Origin: a virus
Taxonomy: Duplodnaviria > Heunggongvirae > Uroviricota > Caudoviricetes
Length of the DNA stretch: 64,000 bases
IMG/VR virus record: IMGVR_UViG_3300026382_000001
Direction: 5' to 3' (one strand)
Below are positions 1,968 through 63,724 of this stretch, piece after piece. The position numbers and the translations under genes are program-made. How positions within the stretch are numbered: position 1 is the first letter of the stretch; each line of letters begins with the position of its first letter. The notes under the pieces were generated by a model. The model saw nothing but the letters and a program-made list of their open reading frames with translations. It was not told the origin of the DNA and did no database searches.

Positions 1968-2006
1968 CCACAGGAAATTATTGGAGAATTTCTTCTCCAA
2001 TAATTT
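1968..2006 (-). terminator. intrinsic terminator with TTTCCTGTG tail
   Basis: 14-bp stem with GAAA loop, after 2020-2673. Confidence 0.8.
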
Positions 2007-9874: not shown

Positions 9875-10294
9875 TTAATTTCCAAAATTAACGATAAGGT
9901 TTCTCTTACTTAGAACTTCGATCTCATCTTTATTTTTTAAAACGATATCTGCTAACTGTTCTAGTTTATTCGTTAGGTCGTTTAATTTATCATCTTTTTG
10001 TTGCTGTTCTCTTTCAAATTCAAAAACCTTTTCTCTTAATGAATCGTTATCAAATCGTAAATGATTTATTTGATCCTTTAGAATTTGAAATTTCTTTTCA
10101 ATACTTCTAGAATCTAATTGATATTGAGATGAAGAATAATGATCAACGTGATCGAATTGAGGTACTTCTGGAATATTTGGTGATATCATATCATAACTAT
10201 TATCCAAACCATACGGATTTTGAATGGATATTGTATTATTTAAATTACTATCCATTGATCTAGATCTAAAACTAAATTTATTTTCGTTTGTCAT
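9875..10294 (-). CDS. coiled-coil protein with C-terminal LIxNF motif
   Basis: ATG at 10294 after AAAGGAAA; ends EVLSKRNLIVNFGN. Confidence 0.7.
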   Translation of the reverse strand: MTNENKFSFRSRSMDSNLNNTISIQNPYGLDNSYDMISPNIPEVPQFDHVDHYSSSQYQLDSRSIEKKFQILKDQINHLRFDNDSLREKVFEFEREQQQKDDKLNDLTNKLEQLADIVLKNKDEIEVLSKRNLIVNFGN

Positions 10295-10304
10295 TTTATT
10301 TCCT

Positions 10305-10520
10305 TTATTCAAATTTTGCTATTAATGGTCGCTTTTCTAATTCATTTAATTTTTCTTCCAAATAATCATTTTTAGATATAAGTGTATCTATCCTAGTAAG
10401 TACTTTATTAAGTTGTTCTTCTAAAATACTAATTCTGGTTAAATGCTCAAAATTATTTGATTCAAGAACTCGAACTTGATTCTGTAACATTTCTTTTCCC
10501 GTTTCCAATAAGGTTGTCAT
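10305..10520 (-). CDS. small coiled-coil protein with C-terminal LIxxF motif
   Basis: 71 aa with SD; ends ELEKRPLIAKFE. Confidence 0.7.
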   Translation of the reverse strand: MTTLLETGKEMLQNQVRVLESNNFEHLTRISILEEQLNKVLTRIDTLISKNDYLEEKLNELEKRPLIAKFE

Positions 10521-10535
10521 TTTATTTCCTTTAAA

Positions 10536-10967
10536 TTATTCAAAATTAATAGTTAAATCTTTTTTCTTTAATTCTTCAATCTCTTTTTCTAATTTTTTTA
10601 TATTAACATTAAGTATTTTTTTATCTTCTTTTAATTCACTTATATGATTTTGAAAAGTTTCCCGTTCTATTATACATACCGAATAACTAGTTAAAAATTC
10701 ATGATTTTTACTAAATAAGGATTTATTAATATTTATATTATTTATTACTTTAAATACTTCCTCTAATGATAATTTTATATTACATGTCTCTACTTTACCA
10801 TTTATATTTTTATTATTAAAAAATTTTAATAAATCTGTATTATTTTTAACGCCATCTAAATTTTCAATTATTAATTTTTCAATTGCTATTGTATAATCTG
10901 ATATTGATTCGTCCTCACATATATCTAATAATCTATCTATTTCTTCTTGACTTAATATATCTGCCAT
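10536..10967 (-). CDS. protein with FliM N-terminal (CheY-P binding) peptide mimic
   Basis: Starts MADILSQEEIDRLL (FliM-N consensus LSQxEIDxLL); remainder unrelated to FliM; ends KKKDLTINFE. Confidence 0.7.
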   Translation of the reverse strand: MADILSQEEIDRLLDICEDESISDYTIAIEKLIIENLDGVKNNTDLLKFFNNKNINGKVETCNIKLSLEEVFKVINNININKSLFSKNHEFLTSYSVCIIERETFQNHISELKEDKKILNVNIKKLEKEIEELKKKDLTINFE

Positions 10968-12699: not shown

Positions 12700-13008
12700 T
12701 TACATGCTCATATTCATCGGATCGCCTGATACAATCATCGCTTGTACTATTGGACCAACTACTGTAGCACCTAATGTACTCGTTGGCATACCACTATTTA
12801 AATCCATTGGTACTCCAGTCATAATCATGGCTGAACCACATGGAAATATAACAGTATCCCCCATCCGAGCGGTTGGCATACCAGTATTAAGGCTCATTGG
12901 ATCGCCGGATACAACTATTCCAGTGGCTGGTTGAGGACCTGGTCCAGCTGGTGGAGGAGGCCAAAAACAAGTACCAAAAGCAGTATCTCCAATTCGGGTA
13001 ACTACCAT
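12700..13008 (-). CDS. PAAR-repeat spike tip protein (T4 gp5.4-like)
   Basis: 102 aa; TRIGD, GMPTARMGD and GMPTSTLGA repeats; Cys residues. Confidence 0.85.
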   Translation of the reverse strand: MVVTRIGDTAFGTCFWPPPPAGPGPQPATGIVVSGDPMSLNTGMPTARMGDTVIFPCGSAMIMTGVPMDLNSGMPTSTLGATVVGPIVQAMIVSGDPMNMSM

Positions 13009-13028
13009 ATTATTTCCTTTATATCTAG

Positions 13029-13439
13029 TTATATATCTAGTAATATAACTAATTTATTTTCTATTTCCGATATTTTTATTAAATTTTTAAAAAATTTATT
13101 TTTCGGTTTTGGAATTTTTATTTTATTATCTGAAATTTCAAATACTCTATATATTTTATGTATTGGTATTAAAATTTTTCCATATTTTTTAGTTTTAATT
13201 AACATAAGAATTTTTGCATGTTCTATTTCTATATTTTTAGAAGTCAGTCCAATTAATTTATTTAAATTAAAAACTGGAAAAATCGTATTCCGAATAATAC
13301 CAAAACCATAACTCGGAGAATTTAATTCACCCGTTTTTGTAATTTTTATATCCTGAGTTCTCATAAATTCTATTATATTTTCCGCTGGAAAAGCAAATAT
13401 TTCATCCGAATTTGGTAATTCAAAAACTGCTATTTTCAT
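13029..13439 (-). CDS. cheW: CheW-like chemotaxis coupling protein
   Basis: 136 aa; VFEL..EIFAFP..NIIE..ITK..GIIRNTIFPVFNLNKLIG..IHKIYRV..LVILLDI matches the CheW pattern. Confidence 0.7.
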   Translation of the reverse strand: MKIAVFELPNSDEIFAFPAENIIEFMRTQDIKITKTGELNSPSYGFGIIRNTIFPVFNLNKLIGLTSKNIEIEHAKILMLIKTKKYGKILIPIHKIYRVFEISDNKIKIPKPKNKFFKNLIKISEIENKLVILLDI

Positions 13440-13447
13440 ATTAATCC

Positions 13448-15586
13448 TTAATATTGAAATAATATTCCTCGGTCATTGTAAATTCCACCAACATTTTTAT
13501 AATAATTAAGAACTGGATAAAAAGATTCAAAAATTCCATTTATAATAATATCCTCTTGATATGTATCATAAAGAACTATTGGACCACATAGAGTATCGAA
13601 AGGTTTTATATATCCTTTTTTACTGAATGAATACTCCGCGTAAAAACTATTTAATTGAAATCTTTTATTTATTGCGTCTAAATTAGTCTCATCTAAATTC
13701 ATAACTTCGTTAATTTTTCTAGTACTACTTGTACTTAAAAATTCATATTCCGAAGCGGCCGATAAATTTTTATAATGTATTGTTGTATCAAACGTCTGTT
13801 TATTAAAATCATATCTTAATGTTAATTGATACCAGTTACCTGGAACAAAGTTTACAAAAATTTCAGAATGATAACCATGAAAATCAATATTTAAAGTCAT
13901 ATCTCTTTCATTATAATATATACAATTATTATTAATTGGATCGGATATTAAAACCTGTCTTGAAACATCATAATATGAATTTCTAAAACTTGTATTCATA
14001 AAAGCATTTCTTTTAAAGAAAAGAATTAAAGTAAAACTTTCATTAGTGAATTTATTCTTACAAAACATATCGTCTATTATAACATGGTTCGGAAAAGTAT
14101 AATTACCTGATTTTCTAGTTTCTAAATACCAATCTTTTCCTCTCATTGATAACGGTTTACCTAATGATTTATAAGGATAAACTTTATTATAAACGATTCT
14201 AGTTTCTTCTTTGGATTTATTAAAAAAATCATAATATGCTAAAGCTCCATATAAATCTGGAAAATAGTTTTGACCAAAGGTTATATTATTAATATCTATT
14301 CGATCTTCTTGTAGATGAACATCGTATATCTTACCACAGAATTGTTTTAACCCACTTTTATCCATACCTAAATAATATAATCCCGTTTCAGTCGTACTGG
14401 ATTCTTCATCTGTATAAGTATCGGTTCCATAAAATCTTTTTAATTCTAAAGTATGGTAATTATAATTTCTAGTATAAACCATAGTATAAATAACTTCTGG
14501 AAGTATTTTAGCATCTGGAATATCAGTAATATTAATTTCAAGTTTCTTTTTCATTGAATCTGAAATAGTTCCATCTAAATTTGAATCGACAGCTGAGCCT
14601 AAATATTGCGTAGTATTATCTACTATACTTTGACCATCAATGTATTTATCAAAATTTAGTACTTCTAATTGACCATTATTAATTTGAATAATTAAATTTC
14701 TATCTAAATTTATTTGAAGCAATGGTATTCCATAAGTTGGTAAAGAATTTTTTAATAAATCAGTTACGTGATTATTTAATGCTTCTGTGGAAGCATCTGC
14801 TACATTTACTCCAGTTTTTTCTTCGATAATATTTAATTGATTTTGAACCACTTTAGATATACCATCTTGAATTAAATTAGTATTATATTCTTCCATAGTG
14901 CTTGCACCAAGTTTTAATTTCTTCGTTTCCGTTTGAACTATATTTTTAAGTTCCGAATTATCTGGTAAATTACATAATGGTTCAGAAATAGTTGGTTCTA
15001 TATTATTTCCTGGATTAATTTTAGGTAATGCATTTAAAAAAGTTGCCTTTAAAGTTTCCTCTATTCCAGTCGCAGATTTACATATTTTAGTATTATCAGA
15101 TAAATCCATTGTAACAGTTTCTATAATTTCAGCATCCATATTTTCTATATTAATTGTTGTAGTATTTGCTTCCGAAAGAGCTTCTTTATCTTCTTCTGAA
15201 AGTTCTGGACAATCAGGTAAAGTACTTGGATCGTCTATACCATTATTTATCATATCTAAAGCATCGTTTATATCTGATTCAGCTGTATCTAAACTTTCTT
15301 TAGATACGACTCTTTGAATTGAATCTAAAAGAACTAAATCACTTAATGTTCCATCGTAACCATAATTATTTAATAACATTGATCCAAGATTATTTAAATC
15401 TAAAGTTTTATTATTTATAATTAAACCATCATCTTCATAATACGCCTGATTTGAAACTTCAAATGTAATACTTATACTAAATTTACTTTTATTTTTAAAA
15501 GTTTTAAATTGAGCTCCAAGGCCATTATAATCCATAATATTATTTACAGTTGGTGCTAATTCAAATATATTTTCTGGTACTAACAT
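13448..15586 (-). CDS. virion protein with C-terminal LamG/concanavalin-like domain
   Basis: SFTLILFFKR..GNWYQLTLRYD..GPIVLYD LamG-like pattern; first gene after a late-type promoter. Confidence 0.55.
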   Translation of the reverse strand: MLVPENIFELAPTVNNIMDYNGLGAQFKTFKNKSKFSISITFEVSNQAYYEDDGLIINNKTLDLNNLGSMLLNNYGYDGTLSDLVLLDSIQRVVSKESLDTAESDINDALDMINNGIDDPSTLPDCPELSEEDKEALSEANTTTINIENMDAEIIETVTMDLSDNTKICKSATGIEETLKATFLNALPKINPGNNIEPTISEPLCNLPDNSELKNIVQTETKKLKLGASTMEEYNTNLIQDGISKVVQNQLNIIEEKTGVNVADASTEALNNHVTDLLKNSLPTYGIPLLQINLDRNLIIQINNGQLEVLNFDKYIDGQSIVDNTTQYLGSAVDSNLDGTISDSMKKKLEINITDIPDAKILPEVIYTMVYTRNYNYHTLELKRFYGTDTYTDEESSTTETGLYYLGMDKSGLKQFCGKIYDVHLQEDRIDINNITFGQNYFPDLYGALAYYDFFNKSKEETRIVYNKVYPYKSLGKPLSMRGKDWYLETRKSGNYTFPNHVIIDDMFCKNKFTNESFTLILFFKRNAFMNTSFRNSYYDVSRQVLISDPINNNCIYYNERDMTLNIDFHGYHSEIFVNFVPGNWYQLTLRYDFNKQTFDTTIHYKNLSAASEYEFLSTSSTRKINEVMNLDETNLDAINKRFQLNSFYAEYSFSKKGYIKPFDTLCGPIVLYDTYQEDIIINGIFESFYPVLNYYKNVGGIYNDRGILFQY

Positions 15587-15608: not shown

Positions 15609-15617
15609 TATTTAGTT
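15609..15617 (-). promoter_or_regulatory. late-type promoter AACTAAATA
   Basis: Exact motif just upstream of 13448-15586; resembles T4-type late TATAAATA/CTAAATA. Confidence 0.6.
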
Positions 15618-15770: not shown

Positions 15771-15815
15771 AACGACAAGAATATACCTTAATAGAGAAAT
15801 TCTCTATTAAGGTAT
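15771..15815 (-). terminator. intrinsic terminator with TTCTTGTCG tail
   Basis: 15-bp stem, after 15822-16442. Confidence 0.8.
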
Positions 15816-15821
15816 TAAATA

Positions 15822-16442
15822 TTAATTCCAAGATATTAATTCTACATCTTCCTTATTAACACATACTTCTACATCTTTCAATAATTTTTGATATTTTCCC
15901 AAAGCACTGGATTCCATAATTTTATAATCCGAAGCTTTTTCTAAAATTTTAGTTATTAATTCATCCTTGGTTTCGTCAAGATCTCTTGATACTAATAAAT
16001 TATCAATAAATGGAGTTTTTACATTATTATCTATTATATAATTATTTGCTTCGGTTTCTTGATAAATCCAAGATTCTCTTTCGTTAACCGGATAAATAAT
16101 TCTCGAATTTTCGTAATCCATTCTAAGTTCGATTATTTTATTTTCTTTAATTTGATTTAATGTTAAATTTCCTTCTTGACCTTCAGGTTGAACCCAATTA
16201 AAAGTAAGATCATGTAGGTAAGATAATTGTTCATCGGTGAGTGGTCTAGTTTCGTTATTAACGTTAGTGAAAAATTTAGTATTTAAATCACTGTCGTCAT
16301 ATTCTAAATATATATAATCTTCCGATATATCTGGAGGAGTATTTTTTCCATACACTCCATTTGGATATAAATCATTTTCTATGTAAATATTATTTACCTC
16401 ATCGTTTAAATATTCACCATAATTCCATACTATTAATTTCAT
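15822..16442 (-). CDS. tail fibre assembly chaperone-like protein
   Basis: ERESWIYQETEA..TPFIDNLL..LITKILEKA pattern typical of fibre chaperones; follows a fibre gene. Confidence 0.65.
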   Translation of the reverse strand: MKLIVWNYGEYLNDEVNNIYIENDLYPNGVYGKNTPPDISEDYIYLEYDDSDLNTKFFTNVNNETRPLTDEQLSYLHDLTFNWVQPEGQEGNLTLNQIKENKIIELRMDYENSRIIYPVNERESWIYQETEANNYIIDNNVKTPFIDNLLVSRDLDETKDELITKILEKASDYKIMESSALGKYQKLLKDVEVCVNKEDVELISWN

Positions 16443-16452
16443 TTAATTTCCT

Positions 16453-17151
16453 TTAAAATATTATTTTTACTAATCCGTTACCACCACGGCCGGTACTCAC
16501 ATTAGTATAAGCATAAGCGTAAAAACCTATACCTCCACCACCACTACCATAACCACCATTACTACCAAAACCATAACAAGCTCCACCATTACCACCATTA
16601 CTATATCCAGAAGATATACCACCATATCCATAATGGTAGGAATATTTTGCTCTAATGCCGTCTTTACTACTAGTATAACAACCATTTCTAGAACCACCAT
16701 TACCATAACCACCAGAACCAGAACCACCACTAGCGCTGTATCCACCGGCAGAAGTTGTTCCACCGGCTCCACCATTTGACCAAGTATTGGAAATAGAGTT
16801 ACCACCAGCACCAATAGAAATAACTAAAGATTGACCATCACTATAATTAATGGTCTTTGTAACTATTGTACCTGCGGTACCACCAGTAGCGGTAGTTTGT
16901 TGACCCGAACCACCACCACCTGCTCCAAGTAAACATATGGTTACATCGGTATTAGCTGGAAAATCTTTTCCAGCTATTAAAGTTTTAGAAGTTGTTACTA
17001 TGATAGGAGAAGTAAATGCTGATGGAGGAGGTGGTATATATATTTCCCAAACCTTTATTTTATTAGCATATAGTTTATTCATTTCTTTACCATTAGCTAT
17101 TAATTTTCCACCGTTTTCTGGTATAGTTATACCAAATATTTCTAAACCCAT
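16453..17151 (-). CDS. glycine-rich tail fibre/receptor-binding protein
   Basis: LLGAGGGGSG..ISIGAGG..GSGGGG..GRGGNGLVKI glycine-rich domain. Confidence 0.7.
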   Translation of the reverse strand: MGLEIFGITIPENGGKLIANGKEMNKLYANKIKVWEIYIPPPPSAFTSPIIVTTSKTLIAGKDFPANTDVTICLLGAGGGGSGQQTTATGGTAGTIVTKTINYSDGQSLVISIGAGGNSISNTWSNGGAGGTTSAGGYSASGGSGSGGYGNGGSRNGCYTSSKDGIRAKYSYHYGYGGISSGYSNGGNGGACYGFGSNGGYGSGGGGIGFYAYAYTNVSTGRGGNGLVKIIF

Positions 17152-61519: not shown

Positions 61520-62995
61520 TTAATAATTTTCTTTTTTTGCTTTAATTCCTGGAATCGTAATTTCAAAAACAGTTCCTTTTTCGGAGGTTTCCCTTAATTT
61601 TAAATTTCCATGATTATCCCGTAATAATTCCTTATTTAAATATAATCCTACTCCTCTTGCGTTATCTTCTTTAACTGGTTCTGGTGCTATTTTTAAAAAT
61701 CGATTTGTTTTAGTAAATTTCGTTTTTAAAATATGTACTAAATCTAAAATATAACCTTTTGAATTATAAATTTTAGATTTTCCATTTTTATTTTTAGAAC
61801 TGTAATAATCTTTAAAAATATTTTGATATTTTGATGGAGATAGTAATAATCCAGTATCTGGATCTCTAAGACCAGTCCCATTATCAATTATAAATATATG
61901 TATTAATTTTATTTTTTCATTTTTAGTATCAGATACTTTTAGCTGTAGATGTATTTTTGTGGCACTGGCTTCTATACTATTTCTTAAATGATTAGAAATT
62001 ATATTTAATAAATCAGCATTTTTTAAATATCCATCTCCATGTTTAAGACTCCATTCCTCAAATGCTGGATCAATTATAATTTCAAAATAAGAAGCTTTAT
62101 AAATACTCATAGAATTAGCCGAATAATTTAAAATATCAAATAATGTTTTATTACCATTACTGTATTTGAGATTTTTAAAATTACTCATTCTTTCTAGTAC
62201 TGTACCAATTTGATCAATACTCGAATAAATCATGTCAAAATCTATTCCTTTAAATTGTTCGGTTAATGCACATGTTTTAAAACAATTTTTCGAAATATCA
62301 TATTGTCTTTTTAAAGATTGTTCTATTTTTAAAACAGATCCTTGAATAATAGCTACTGGAGTATTTAATTCATGATGTATATTTTCAGTAAGTATTTGCA
62401 TATTCTTTTCTCTAAGAATACTGCTAGTATTTATAACATCTAAAGCTTTTCGTCTTGATAATTTAAATTCATATATAAAAAATATAAAAGTAATAGGTAT
62501 TATAAATATAACATAAATATAAAAATACCCTTTTAGTAATTCGCTTAACGTATAATAACTATTACTTGATAAATACAAATTATATTTTGGTAAAGTTATT
62601 ATAATATTTTTATGTAGGTCTTCGTTAAAAGCTGTATTAACAGTATTTTCTATTATTGGAATTTTATTCAATTTCCAATAAATATTAATTATTTTACGAT
62701 TATTATTTTTTATTAATTTGCCATCTTTTAATACGTATGATTTATTTCTATTTATAAAACCAATTTGAGAACAGTTTGAAATAGTACAAATATGTTGTAA
62801 ATCTATTTCGTGATATTCTTCAATTGTTTTTACTACGGTGTTTTTTAAATTTTCTTTATACATGTGAACTATATTGTGAAAATTATTACCAAGTACTGCT
62901 CCCATTAATAAAGTATATATAGTTATTAAACCAAGATACTTAAAAAATATTGATCCAGAAGCATGATATAAACTTCCCATTTTAGAGGTTTCCAT
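61520..62995 (-). CDS. membrane sensor histidine kinase
   Basis: Two TM segments; H-box NIHHELNTP; N-box NHLRNSIEA; G1 IIDNGTG; G2 RGVGLYL. Confidence 0.9.
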   Translation of the reverse strand: METSKMGSLYHASGSIFFKYLGLITIYTLLMGAVLGNNFHNIVHMYKENLKNTVVKTIEEYHEIDLQHICTISNCSQIGFINRNKSYVLKDGKLIKNNNRKIINIYWKLNKIPIIENTVNTAFNEDLHKNIIITLPKYNLYLSSNSYYTLSELLKGYFYIYVIFIIPITFIFFIYEFKLSRRKALDVINTSSILREKNMQILTENIHHELNTPVAIIQGSVLKIEQSLKRQYDISKNCFKTCALTEQFKGIDFDMIYSSIDQIGTVLERMSNFKNLKYSNGNKTLFDILNYSANSMSIYKASYFEIIIDPAFEEWSLKHGDGYLKNADLLNIISNHLRNSIEASATKIHLQLKVSDTKNEKIKLIHIFIIDNGTGLRDPDTGLLLSPSKYQNIFKDYYSSKNKNGKSKIYNSKGYILDLVHILKTKFTKTNRFLKIAPEPVKEDNARGVGLYLNKELLRDNHGNLKLRETSEKGTVFEITIPGIKAKKENY

Positions 62996-63004
62996 ATTGT
63001 ATCC

Positions 63005-63724
63005 TTAATTTACTAAATCGTATTTGGTGTTTTCAAAGACTCCGTCTTGTTTACCAATAATAAATTTGTCAAAATAATTATGTAGTGTTAATTCTATTAA
63101 TTCTTTACGATTACTAGTTTTATTTATAACATGTTTATAAATTTTAATATCTCCATTATTACTACTTGAAGTTTCTTCGATTTCATCCATTTTTACTTTA
63201 AAGGTGGTTTCAAATTTATGAATAAATTTAAATATTTCCGGATTATGTTTATTAAGAGTATGTCCAGTTACAAATTTAATTAAACAATCTGGATTACGTT
63301 CTTTTAAAAGAATTGCAATATCTATACCATCTAATTCTTCACCATTAATAATACCACCTAAAGTAATATCTAAAAAAGCTATATCTATAATTAAATCTGG
63401 ATTACTCATTAATAAATTTCTTATACTAAAACCAGCAAATATTCCAGTACTTACTATTATATTAAAATATTCTTTTACATTACAGCATCTTGCCTGATAT
63501 AATTCATCCTTGATTAATTCAGCCATTCCATCGAAATCATCCATAATAAATATTGTTTTAAGATCTTTATTAAATATAGCTTCTTTGTTTATATTTATTT
63601 CTGGTATTTCTATTTTATAATTATTTGAACCAAGATCCATTGGTTTAAGATAATCGAGTTCTTCTTGTTCTTCTTCTTGTTCTTCTTCTATAAAATAACT
63701 TTTTATTTTTTCAAAAATATTCAT
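63005..63724 (-). CDS. receiver-domain response regulator without DNA-binding output (CheY-like)
   Basis: IFIMDD acidic pocket; AFLDI phosphoacceptor; DGIDIA; FVTG; no HTH output domain evident. Confidence 0.8.
   Translation of the reverse strand: MNIFEKIKSYFIEEEQEEEQEELDYLKPMDLGSNNYKIEIPEININKEAIFNKDLKTIFIMDDFDGMAELIKDELYQARCCNVKEYFNIIVSTGIFAGFSIRNLLMSNPDLIIDIAFLDITLGGIINGEELDGIDIAILLKERNPDCLIKFVTGHTLNKHNPEIFKFIHKFETTFKVKMDEIEETSSSNNGDIKIYKHVINKTSNRKELIELTLHNYFDKFIIGKQDGVFENTKYDLVN

Follow-up and report, generated by a model that had tools for sequence, protein, structure and literature searches.

The window, i.e., the whole 64-kb stretch of DNA analyzed here, has a GC content of 27%, carries six tRNA genes and is part of a 281-kb contig of an uncultured jumbo phage. 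CheW, the subject of this analysis, is the adaptor protein by which chemoreceptors of bacteria are coupled to their kinase. The region of interest, 12700-13439, consists of two open reading frames (ORFs) on the minus strand. One encodes a 136-aa stand-alone CheW-domain protein, P0001 (13029..13439), recognized by its match to the Pfam CheW family, by an AF2 model and by Foldseek; the other encodes a 102-aa PAAR-like spike-tip protein (12700..13008), recognized by Pfam PAAR_motif matches in its orthologues. Immediately upstream lies the gene of a conserved 712-aa protein with a LamG/ConA-like C-terminal part (13448..15586, minus strand), and all genes in the region around the CheW ORF are on this same strand. 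The stop codon of the 712-aa gene is 8 bp from the ATG of the CheW gene, whose own stop codon is 20 bp from the ATG of the PAAR gene; the original prediction, which had placed a CheW-like ORF between a LamG gene and PAAR with gaps of 8 and 20 bp, was thus exact in both positions and spacing. Each of the three genes is preceded by an AAGGA-type ribosome-binding site (RBS). The CheW frame is intact, and the chance of a 136-codon open frame at the base composition of the window is about 2e-7. It is the only ORF with a CheW domain in the window.

The identity of the neighboring genes was assessed by homology and profile searches. The 712-aa protein has nine homologues (54-86% identity), and the searches of Pfam and of PDB sequences gave no match; its LamG assignment comes from language-model features only (ESM-Atlas 0.97, with 59 of 100 matches in Laminin_G_3 clusters). 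It is probably a fibre or baseplate-periphery protein. The PAAR-like protein matches PAAR_motif (PF05488) with an E-value of 0.002 and 18.8 bits, which is under the cut-off of 27, and the same profile is matched by seven of its eight orthologues at E<=0.1, the best at 2e-5; a weak profile match to the CIS tip protein SalCis10 was also found (E 0.39). The GC content of the PAAR-like gene is 45%, in a genome of 27% GC. Because the orthologues share this feature, we attribute it to the Gly/Pro-rich sequence of the protein (PPPPAGPGPQP) and not to a foreign origin. Tail-fibre and virion PHROGs match genes at 16-28 kb, and the 377-, 177-, 524- and 1031-aa neighbors have no family by Pfam, PHROGs or Atlas, so the term 'baseplate' is a reading of the surroundings. 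That is, of the late baseplate operon originally proposed, a tightly packed tail or structural operon stands, while both 'late' and 'baseplate' derive from the neighboring genes.

A motif scan located the promoter-like motif AACTAAATA at 15609..15617 (minus strand), where a promoter motif upstream of the CheW gene had been anticipated; the ATG of the 712-aa gene, the first gene after the motif, follows at a distance of 23 nt. There are seven occurrences of AACTAAATA in the window relative to 5.2 expected, a number that is not significant alone. All seven are on the coding strand, each 15-40 nt before an RBS and ATG, and ACTAAATA occurs seven times on the minus strand and once on the plus strand. 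Strand bias and spacing fit a promoter, which we would tentatively call late. A scan for sigma-70 promoters was uninformative in this AT-rich DNA (119 matches vs 124 expected). An extended form of the motif, (G/A)AACTAAATA(A/T)TA, is found on the minus strand at 15609, 17492, 21296, 36236, 50137, 53742 and 57983, before genes of structural type; we regard it as a candidate promoter of the phage, and it resembles the T4 late TATAAATA box.

Two hairpins mark the probable limits of transcription. One, with a 15-bp stem (15783..15815, minus strand), is terminator-like and closes the preceding transcription unit, and the other, palindromic and with a 14-bp stem (1975..2006), is where the unit carrying the CheW gene probably ends. 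The gene would therefore be transcribed as part of a unit some 13.6 kb long. Immediately upstream of the 712-aa gene, the cassette at 15822-17151 differs from those of related phages (L006:3391-5738, L008:2197-5696 and L013:2704-3418), the variants including Gly_rich_2, a glycosyltransferase 2, a Peptidase_S74 chaperone domain and various small ORFs. This cassette appears to be a variable fibre or host-range module beside a conserved core.

Comparison with related phages

Seven distinct relatives of the window phage were available for comparison (L003/L008, L006/L007, L010, L011/L012, L013, L014 and L015), at least some of them from hydrothermal-vent metagenomes. In all seven, the 712-aa gene is followed directly by a 99-103-aa PAAR-like gene, and then by genes of 363-377 aa and 177-180 aa; none of them (L003, L006-L015) has a CheW gene at the junction between the 712-aa and PAAR genes. 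In an alignment with the DNA of L003, a clean indel of some 430 bp separates the stop codon of the 712-aa gene from the RBS of the PAAR gene. This alignment, the gene orders and a tree of the 712-aa proteins together delimit a lineage-specific insert at 13009..13447 (minus strand), which consists of the CheW ORF and its own RBS. In that tree, P0030 is the sister of the window phage (100/100), and the two fall within a starred five-member clade. No CheW domain was found in an 81-kb contig of a further relative (G003, 29% complete). Two other contigs, L001 and L002, do carry the CheW gene and are 100% identical to the window, so the gene is represented by one genotype only.

Because the window phage is nested among relatives that lack the gene, one gain on a terminal branch is far more parsimonious than repeated loss, and the insertion was recent and single. 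The consequences for the role of the protein are direct. The original prediction allowed for a CheW fold co-opted as a structural part, and conserved presence at the locus in related phages is what would be expected of a virion structural protein; seven relatives keep the block of 712-aa, PAAR, 375-aa and 177-aa genes without CheW, and so the virion evidently assembles in the absence of this protein. A recent insertion that is missing from the relatives thus argues against a structural role. Judging from these gene orders, the CheW gene is an accessory gain and probably does not encode a part of the virion.

The edges of the insert are near-identical modules comprising an RBS and a start, with AAGGAttAATATG upstream (13440-13447) and AAAGGAAATAATATG downstream (13009-13028). 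Such similar modules would fit the gain of a cassette by microhomology recombination at gene boundaries.

Fold and ancestry of the CheW domain

The 136-aa protein matches the Pfam CheW profile (PF01584) with an E-value of 6.6e-9 and 36 bits, over residues 12-136 of 136 and profile positions 9-130 of 138. This score is above the curated cut-off of 23.5 bits and far below that of a typical CheW protein, which is at least 100 bits. A phmmer search matched the phage protein to the T. maritima CheW chains 3JA6 and 1K0S at an E-value of 1e-4. A structural model that AF2 built from alignment A1, with 24 rows of CheW domains, has a pLDDT of 89.8, a pTM of 0.82 and 12 strands, and displays the two intertwined five-stranded beta-barrel subdomains of the CheW fold; the single-sequence model was unusable (pLDDT 40). 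In Foldseek, the AF2 model is most similar to 2QDL, 2CH4 chain Y and 6S1K chain C (TM 0.79-0.80), and then to CheA P5 domains. Among Swiss-Prot models of the AFDB, the best 30 structural matches are all CheW, CheV, CheA-P5, FrzA or PilI, the second best being H. pylori CheV1 (TM 0.80). Because the model was guided by the alignment, the evidence from the fold is not independent of that from the sequence. The Pfam score, the matched PDB chains and the predicted fold together bear out the proposed CheW identity.

The phage protein consists of the CheW domain alone, lacking REC and any extension at the N-terminus, and it ends at the last strand (LLDI-stop). The receiver of a CheV was found neither in the 136-aa protein, where Pfam Response_reg has no match, nor in the next gene, which is PAAR-like. 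Relative to the solved CheW proteins (PF01584; T. maritima 1K0S/2CH4, T. tengcongensis 2QDL, E. coli 2HO9/6S1K), it is alike in being a single domain of about 140 aa with the two-barrel fold (TM 0.8). It differs from them in its sequence, with an identity of 14-23% only, and in its setting, as its gene is that of a phage and has neither cheA nor an MCP gene in its vicinity.

To evaluate the binding interfaces, we examined the conserved hallmark set G57, R62, G63 and E38, in E. coli numbering (PMC3828127). [quoted passage not shown] G57, R62 and E38 are kept in the phage protein, as G45, R50 and E24, whereas the position of G63 is occupied by N51. Two further features of CheW are altered: G37 stands in place of the usual conserved proline, and IPIH in place of the 'VD' motif that follows the third conserved glycine. 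Some of these changes recur in the closest relatives described below, with D or N in place of G63 in P0005 and P0016, and the IPIH-type motif in P0005, P0016 and two Campylobacterota CheV proteins. P18 and E24, on the other hand, are CheW/P5-like and not CheV-like; the CheV proteins of Campylobacterota have N and mostly A/S, respectively, at these positions.

The charge of the protein is likewise unusual. Its pI of 9.67 is the most basic among 61 CheW domains compared, whose median is about 5.2, and the neighboring phage proteins are acidic (pI 4-6), as are known CheW proteins. With the loss of G63, of the proline and of VD, and with this odd pI, the phage protein may no longer bind the usual partners. 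A predicted complex with a stand-in CheA P5 domain, taken from the Campylobacterota genome G222, had a score of 0.01 and was counted neither way. The GC content of the CheW gene is 20.7% (GC3 9.5%), and that of a FliM-N-like gene further downstream is 18.3% (GC3 7.6%); these are the two lowest values in the operon, the other genes near CheW being at 26-30%. The AT-richness shared by 10536-10967 and 13029-13439 suggests a common foreign or less constrained history.

A search of 1.84 billion representative proteins with the phage protein yielded 22 proteins at E<=1e-3, the best non-self match having an E-value of 4.8e-8; identity to any of these approximately 1.8 billion proteins is 35% at most. 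The best single-domain matches are P0005, a 310-aa CheW-REC protein of CheV type (35% identity, 46.6 bits), and P0016, a REC-less protein of 196 aa, which is also the only relative of near length among 5.8 billion proteins. P0016 shares with the phage protein the R-N and IPVEKIYRIF motifs in addition to the absence of REC, and differs from it in having a tail longer by 60 aa and an identity of 31%. It is encoded on a 4594-bp Logan contig of a metagenome (SRR28520291), where a DUF350 gene and three genes of no Pfam family precede it.

P0005 leads to the Campylobacterota, as its closest genomic relative is the CheV of a metagenome-assembled genome (MAG) of this group. A profile of the kin of the phage protein matches 261 of 301 Campylobacterota genomes, and the top matches are all in frames of 300-360 aa. 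When the phage protein alone was scored against Campylobacterota ORFs, CheV proteins reached 19-22 bits, CheA-P5 domains 5-7 bits and CheW 1.8 bits. A maximum-likelihood tree of 61 domains places the phage protein inside the CheV clade (100/98), beside P0005. The branch leading to it is long (2.15 changes per site), and a position outside the CheV clade is not rejected by the AU test (p 0.18). Because of that result, and of the CheW/P5-like residues P18 and E24, these comparisons make an origin from CheV probable, and no more than that. Most likely, the gene derives from that of a CheV-type adaptor, taken from a Campylobacterota-like host or from another phage that carried such a gene. With the Campylobacterota CheV proteins (H. 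pylori CheV1, O24864; metagenomic P0005), the phage protein shares M(Q/K)IAVF, R-(N/D) and (F/I)P(V/I)xKI; it differs from them in lacking the N-terminal extension and the receiver domain, and is therefore not regulable by phosphorylation. Two divergent CheV proteins of 308-356 aa and about 50 Pfam bits, L032 (G222:C3:129679-130083) and L033 (G077:C14:473967-474359), are the closest genomic relatives of the phage protein and share with it the FPVKKI motif. Their genomes, with 11-12 CheW-domain genes each, may point to the host lineage.

CheW genes are rare in phages. Searches of a collection of 50,697 phage records with the locus and the protein (blastn and tblastn) gave no DNA or protein match, and tblastn of a typical CheW against the same collection retrieved nine short, unannotated fragment records, which are probably host contamination. 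No relative was found in a scan of IMG/VR with the phage protein, no match in a profile search of genome contigs with alignment A2, and none at E<=0.01 in single-protein searches of the Campylobacterota genomes G001 and G002 and the phage contig G003. Another viral stand-alone protein with the CheW fold is A0A248SKJ8 of BFVD (139 aa), which belongs to a large phage and has no che partners either; its identity to the phage protein described here is 16%, and the two look like independent acquisitions. Full-text searches of the literature for CheW paired with phage terms gave no paper on phage CheW genes among the matches examined, which came down to the surname Chewapreecha.

A possible decoy adaptor and the competing explanations

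A second gene of the operon bears on the function of the insert. About 2 kb downstream of the CheW gene, at 10536..10967 on the minus strand, is the gene of a 143-aa protein that starts with MADILSQEEIDRLLD, a FliM-N-like CheY-P docking peptide. A FliM-N-like N-terminus is found at the same position in four relatives (L006, L010, L011 and L013), and this mimic appears, from its sequence, to be widespread in the group of the window phage. Thus, the operon already held a chemotaxis-directed accessory gene before CheW was gained, and the FliM-N mimic points at the same pathway as CheW.

As the best-supported reading, to which we assign a little less than an even chance, we tentatively propose that the phage protein serves as a decoy adaptor and disconnects CheA from the receptors of the host. 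A one-gene cassette, acquired recently and inserted between two conserved tail genes, would be transcribed with the structural operon from the promoter-like AACTAAATA site, and its own RBS would serve for translation. Once in the cytoplasm, the protein would occupy receptor tips, the CheA P5 domain or both, in place of the host CheW or CheV, without relaying control. With receptors uncoupled from the kinase, CheY-P would be lowered and the motor frozen in its default mode; the FliM-N mimic would soak up the CheY-P left over, such that the pathway would come under attack at two points, one for each protein. For the phage, the benefit might be, for example, to block flagellum-dependent superinfection or to fix swimming behavior before lysis. 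The binding partners, the direction of the effect, the time of expression and this benefit are as we infer them.

There is a precedent for a simple dosage or decoy mechanism. Where PMC4718596 cites Cardozo et al. (2010), an excess of CheW in E. coli/Salmonella is described as disrupting receptor trimers and polar arrays and abolishing chemotaxis. That case concerns the host's own protein at an unnatural dosage, whereas here a virus would supply a foreign, diverged domain. Poisoning of chemoreceptor arrays, as originally suggested, is a plausible activity for a protein that keeps these hallmark residues and has the FliM-N mimic in its operon; for the nucleation of arrays, suggested alongside it, we found no specific support. 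Several observations count against the decoy adaptor, namely the divergence of the domain (36 Pfam bits), its lost motifs and its basic pI, and also its presence in one genotype only. The position in a putatively late operon is odd for a protein that acts on the infected cell, unless it acts late or is packaged. A fuller version of the decoy scheme takes up the latter option: in a two-point shutdown of chemotaxis from the tail operon, a REC-less, CheV-derived decoy would block the array while the FliM-N mimic captures CheY-P, with the CheW protein perhaps packaged and ejected, and acting from the first minute of infection. We consider this version unlikely.

Several of the same observations would be expected if the gene were a neutral or decaying passenger, i.e., picked up recently by microhomology recombination at the RBS modules and drifting since, with no benefit to the phage. 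The single genotype, the very long branch (2.15 changes per site), the low Pfam score, the loss of G63, proline and VD, the odd pI and a GC content that is the lowest of the operon save the FliM-N gene all suit such a history. However, the frame is intact and the RBS good, residues that determine the fold and the hallmark residues of the interfaces are kept, and the model made with the CheW alignment is confident. Moreover, IP(V/I)xKIYR(I/V)F and the R-N/D substitutions are common to P0005 and P0016, and are therefore traits of a lineage, not signs of decay. We thus regard the passenger as quite unlikely.

The location of the gene raises the alternative that the protein is associated with the virion, either packaged and ejected with the DNA onto arrays at the start of infection, or serving the PAAR/baseplate region as an accessory, either a decoration or an adaptor. 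The gene does sit inside the structural operon, directly before PAAR, under a promoter-like motif common to structural genes, and a pI of 9.67 among neighbors of pI 4-6 is one hint of packaging. Ejected proteins that associate with DNA are typically basic, e.g., the internal proteins of T4. What makes this alternative rather improbable is that all seven relatives build the same module without CheW; in addition, PHROGs revealed no likeness to virion proteins, BFVD gave just the one other CheW-fold protein, and a cargo bound to the tip would presumably reach the periplasm, not the arrays in the cytoplasm.

Retention of the hallmark residues of both interfaces could also mean that the protein works as a coupling protein, and that it is a supportive auxiliary gene which, in the manner of metabolic auxiliary genes, keeps the chemotaxis or energy taxis of the host running during infection, so that the infected cell stays in a favorable chemical zone. 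Some of the relatives come from hydrothermal vents, where taxis along gradients would matter. Yet a FliM-N mimic that docks CheY-P should damp signalling, not sustain it, and the phage protein lacks the REC found in its closest relatives, from which it is also set apart by a very different charge. We consider such a supportive role improbable as well.

It is very improbable that the protein is a scaffold linking the phage's own two-component pair (histidine kinase, 61520-62995, HATPase_c 35.9 bits; a weak receiver, 63005-63724) to host receptors: though both are in the window, they are 48 kb from CheW, the kinase is of HisKA type with no P5 or CheW-like domain, the window has a single CheW-domain ORF, and the receiver is unrelated to that of P0005. 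This receiver was also considered as a detached CheV receiver, and was rejected for its lack of similarity to the P0005 receiver.

Implications and related genes of the operon

On balance, the phage CheW protein probably interferes with the steering of the host and is not a building block of the virus particle. Few signalling machines of bacteria are understood as well as chemoreceptor arrays, and we know of no viral protein that targets them; a two-point shutdown, if true, would be the first case described of a viral effector directed against the chemosensory array of bacteria. Although the domain itself is known, neither its role nor its setting here has been described, and the signs that it was acquired recently are unusually clear. 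The domain acquired is minimal, in that hallmarks of the interfaces are kept and regulation is lost, and it is accompanied in its operon by a second gene aimed at the same pathway. Near-isogenic phages with and without CheW constitute a clean natural experiment. If the protein is active, phages would manipulate the steering of their hosts, and it would provide a small, naturally occurring probe or inhibitor of the CheW/CheV-dependent assembly of arrays in systems of the Campylobacterota type.

The small coiled-coil genes that follow the conserved 177-aa gene have a C-terminal motif in common, L-[TIM]-[VI]-[NK]-F-x (e.g., LTVNFGN, LTINFE, LIAKFE), and form one family. Its members are found at 9875-10967 in the window and in six relatives (L003:12179-12622; L006:10183-10599; L010:4447-5216; L011:8708-9070; L013:7908-8384; L014:4097-4531). 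Their N-termini are interchangeable, being FliM-N-like (MAxILSQxEIDxLLD) in some members and of an 'NNPYG' type in others. The family thus looks modular, with a head peptide, a coiled coil and a common anchor.
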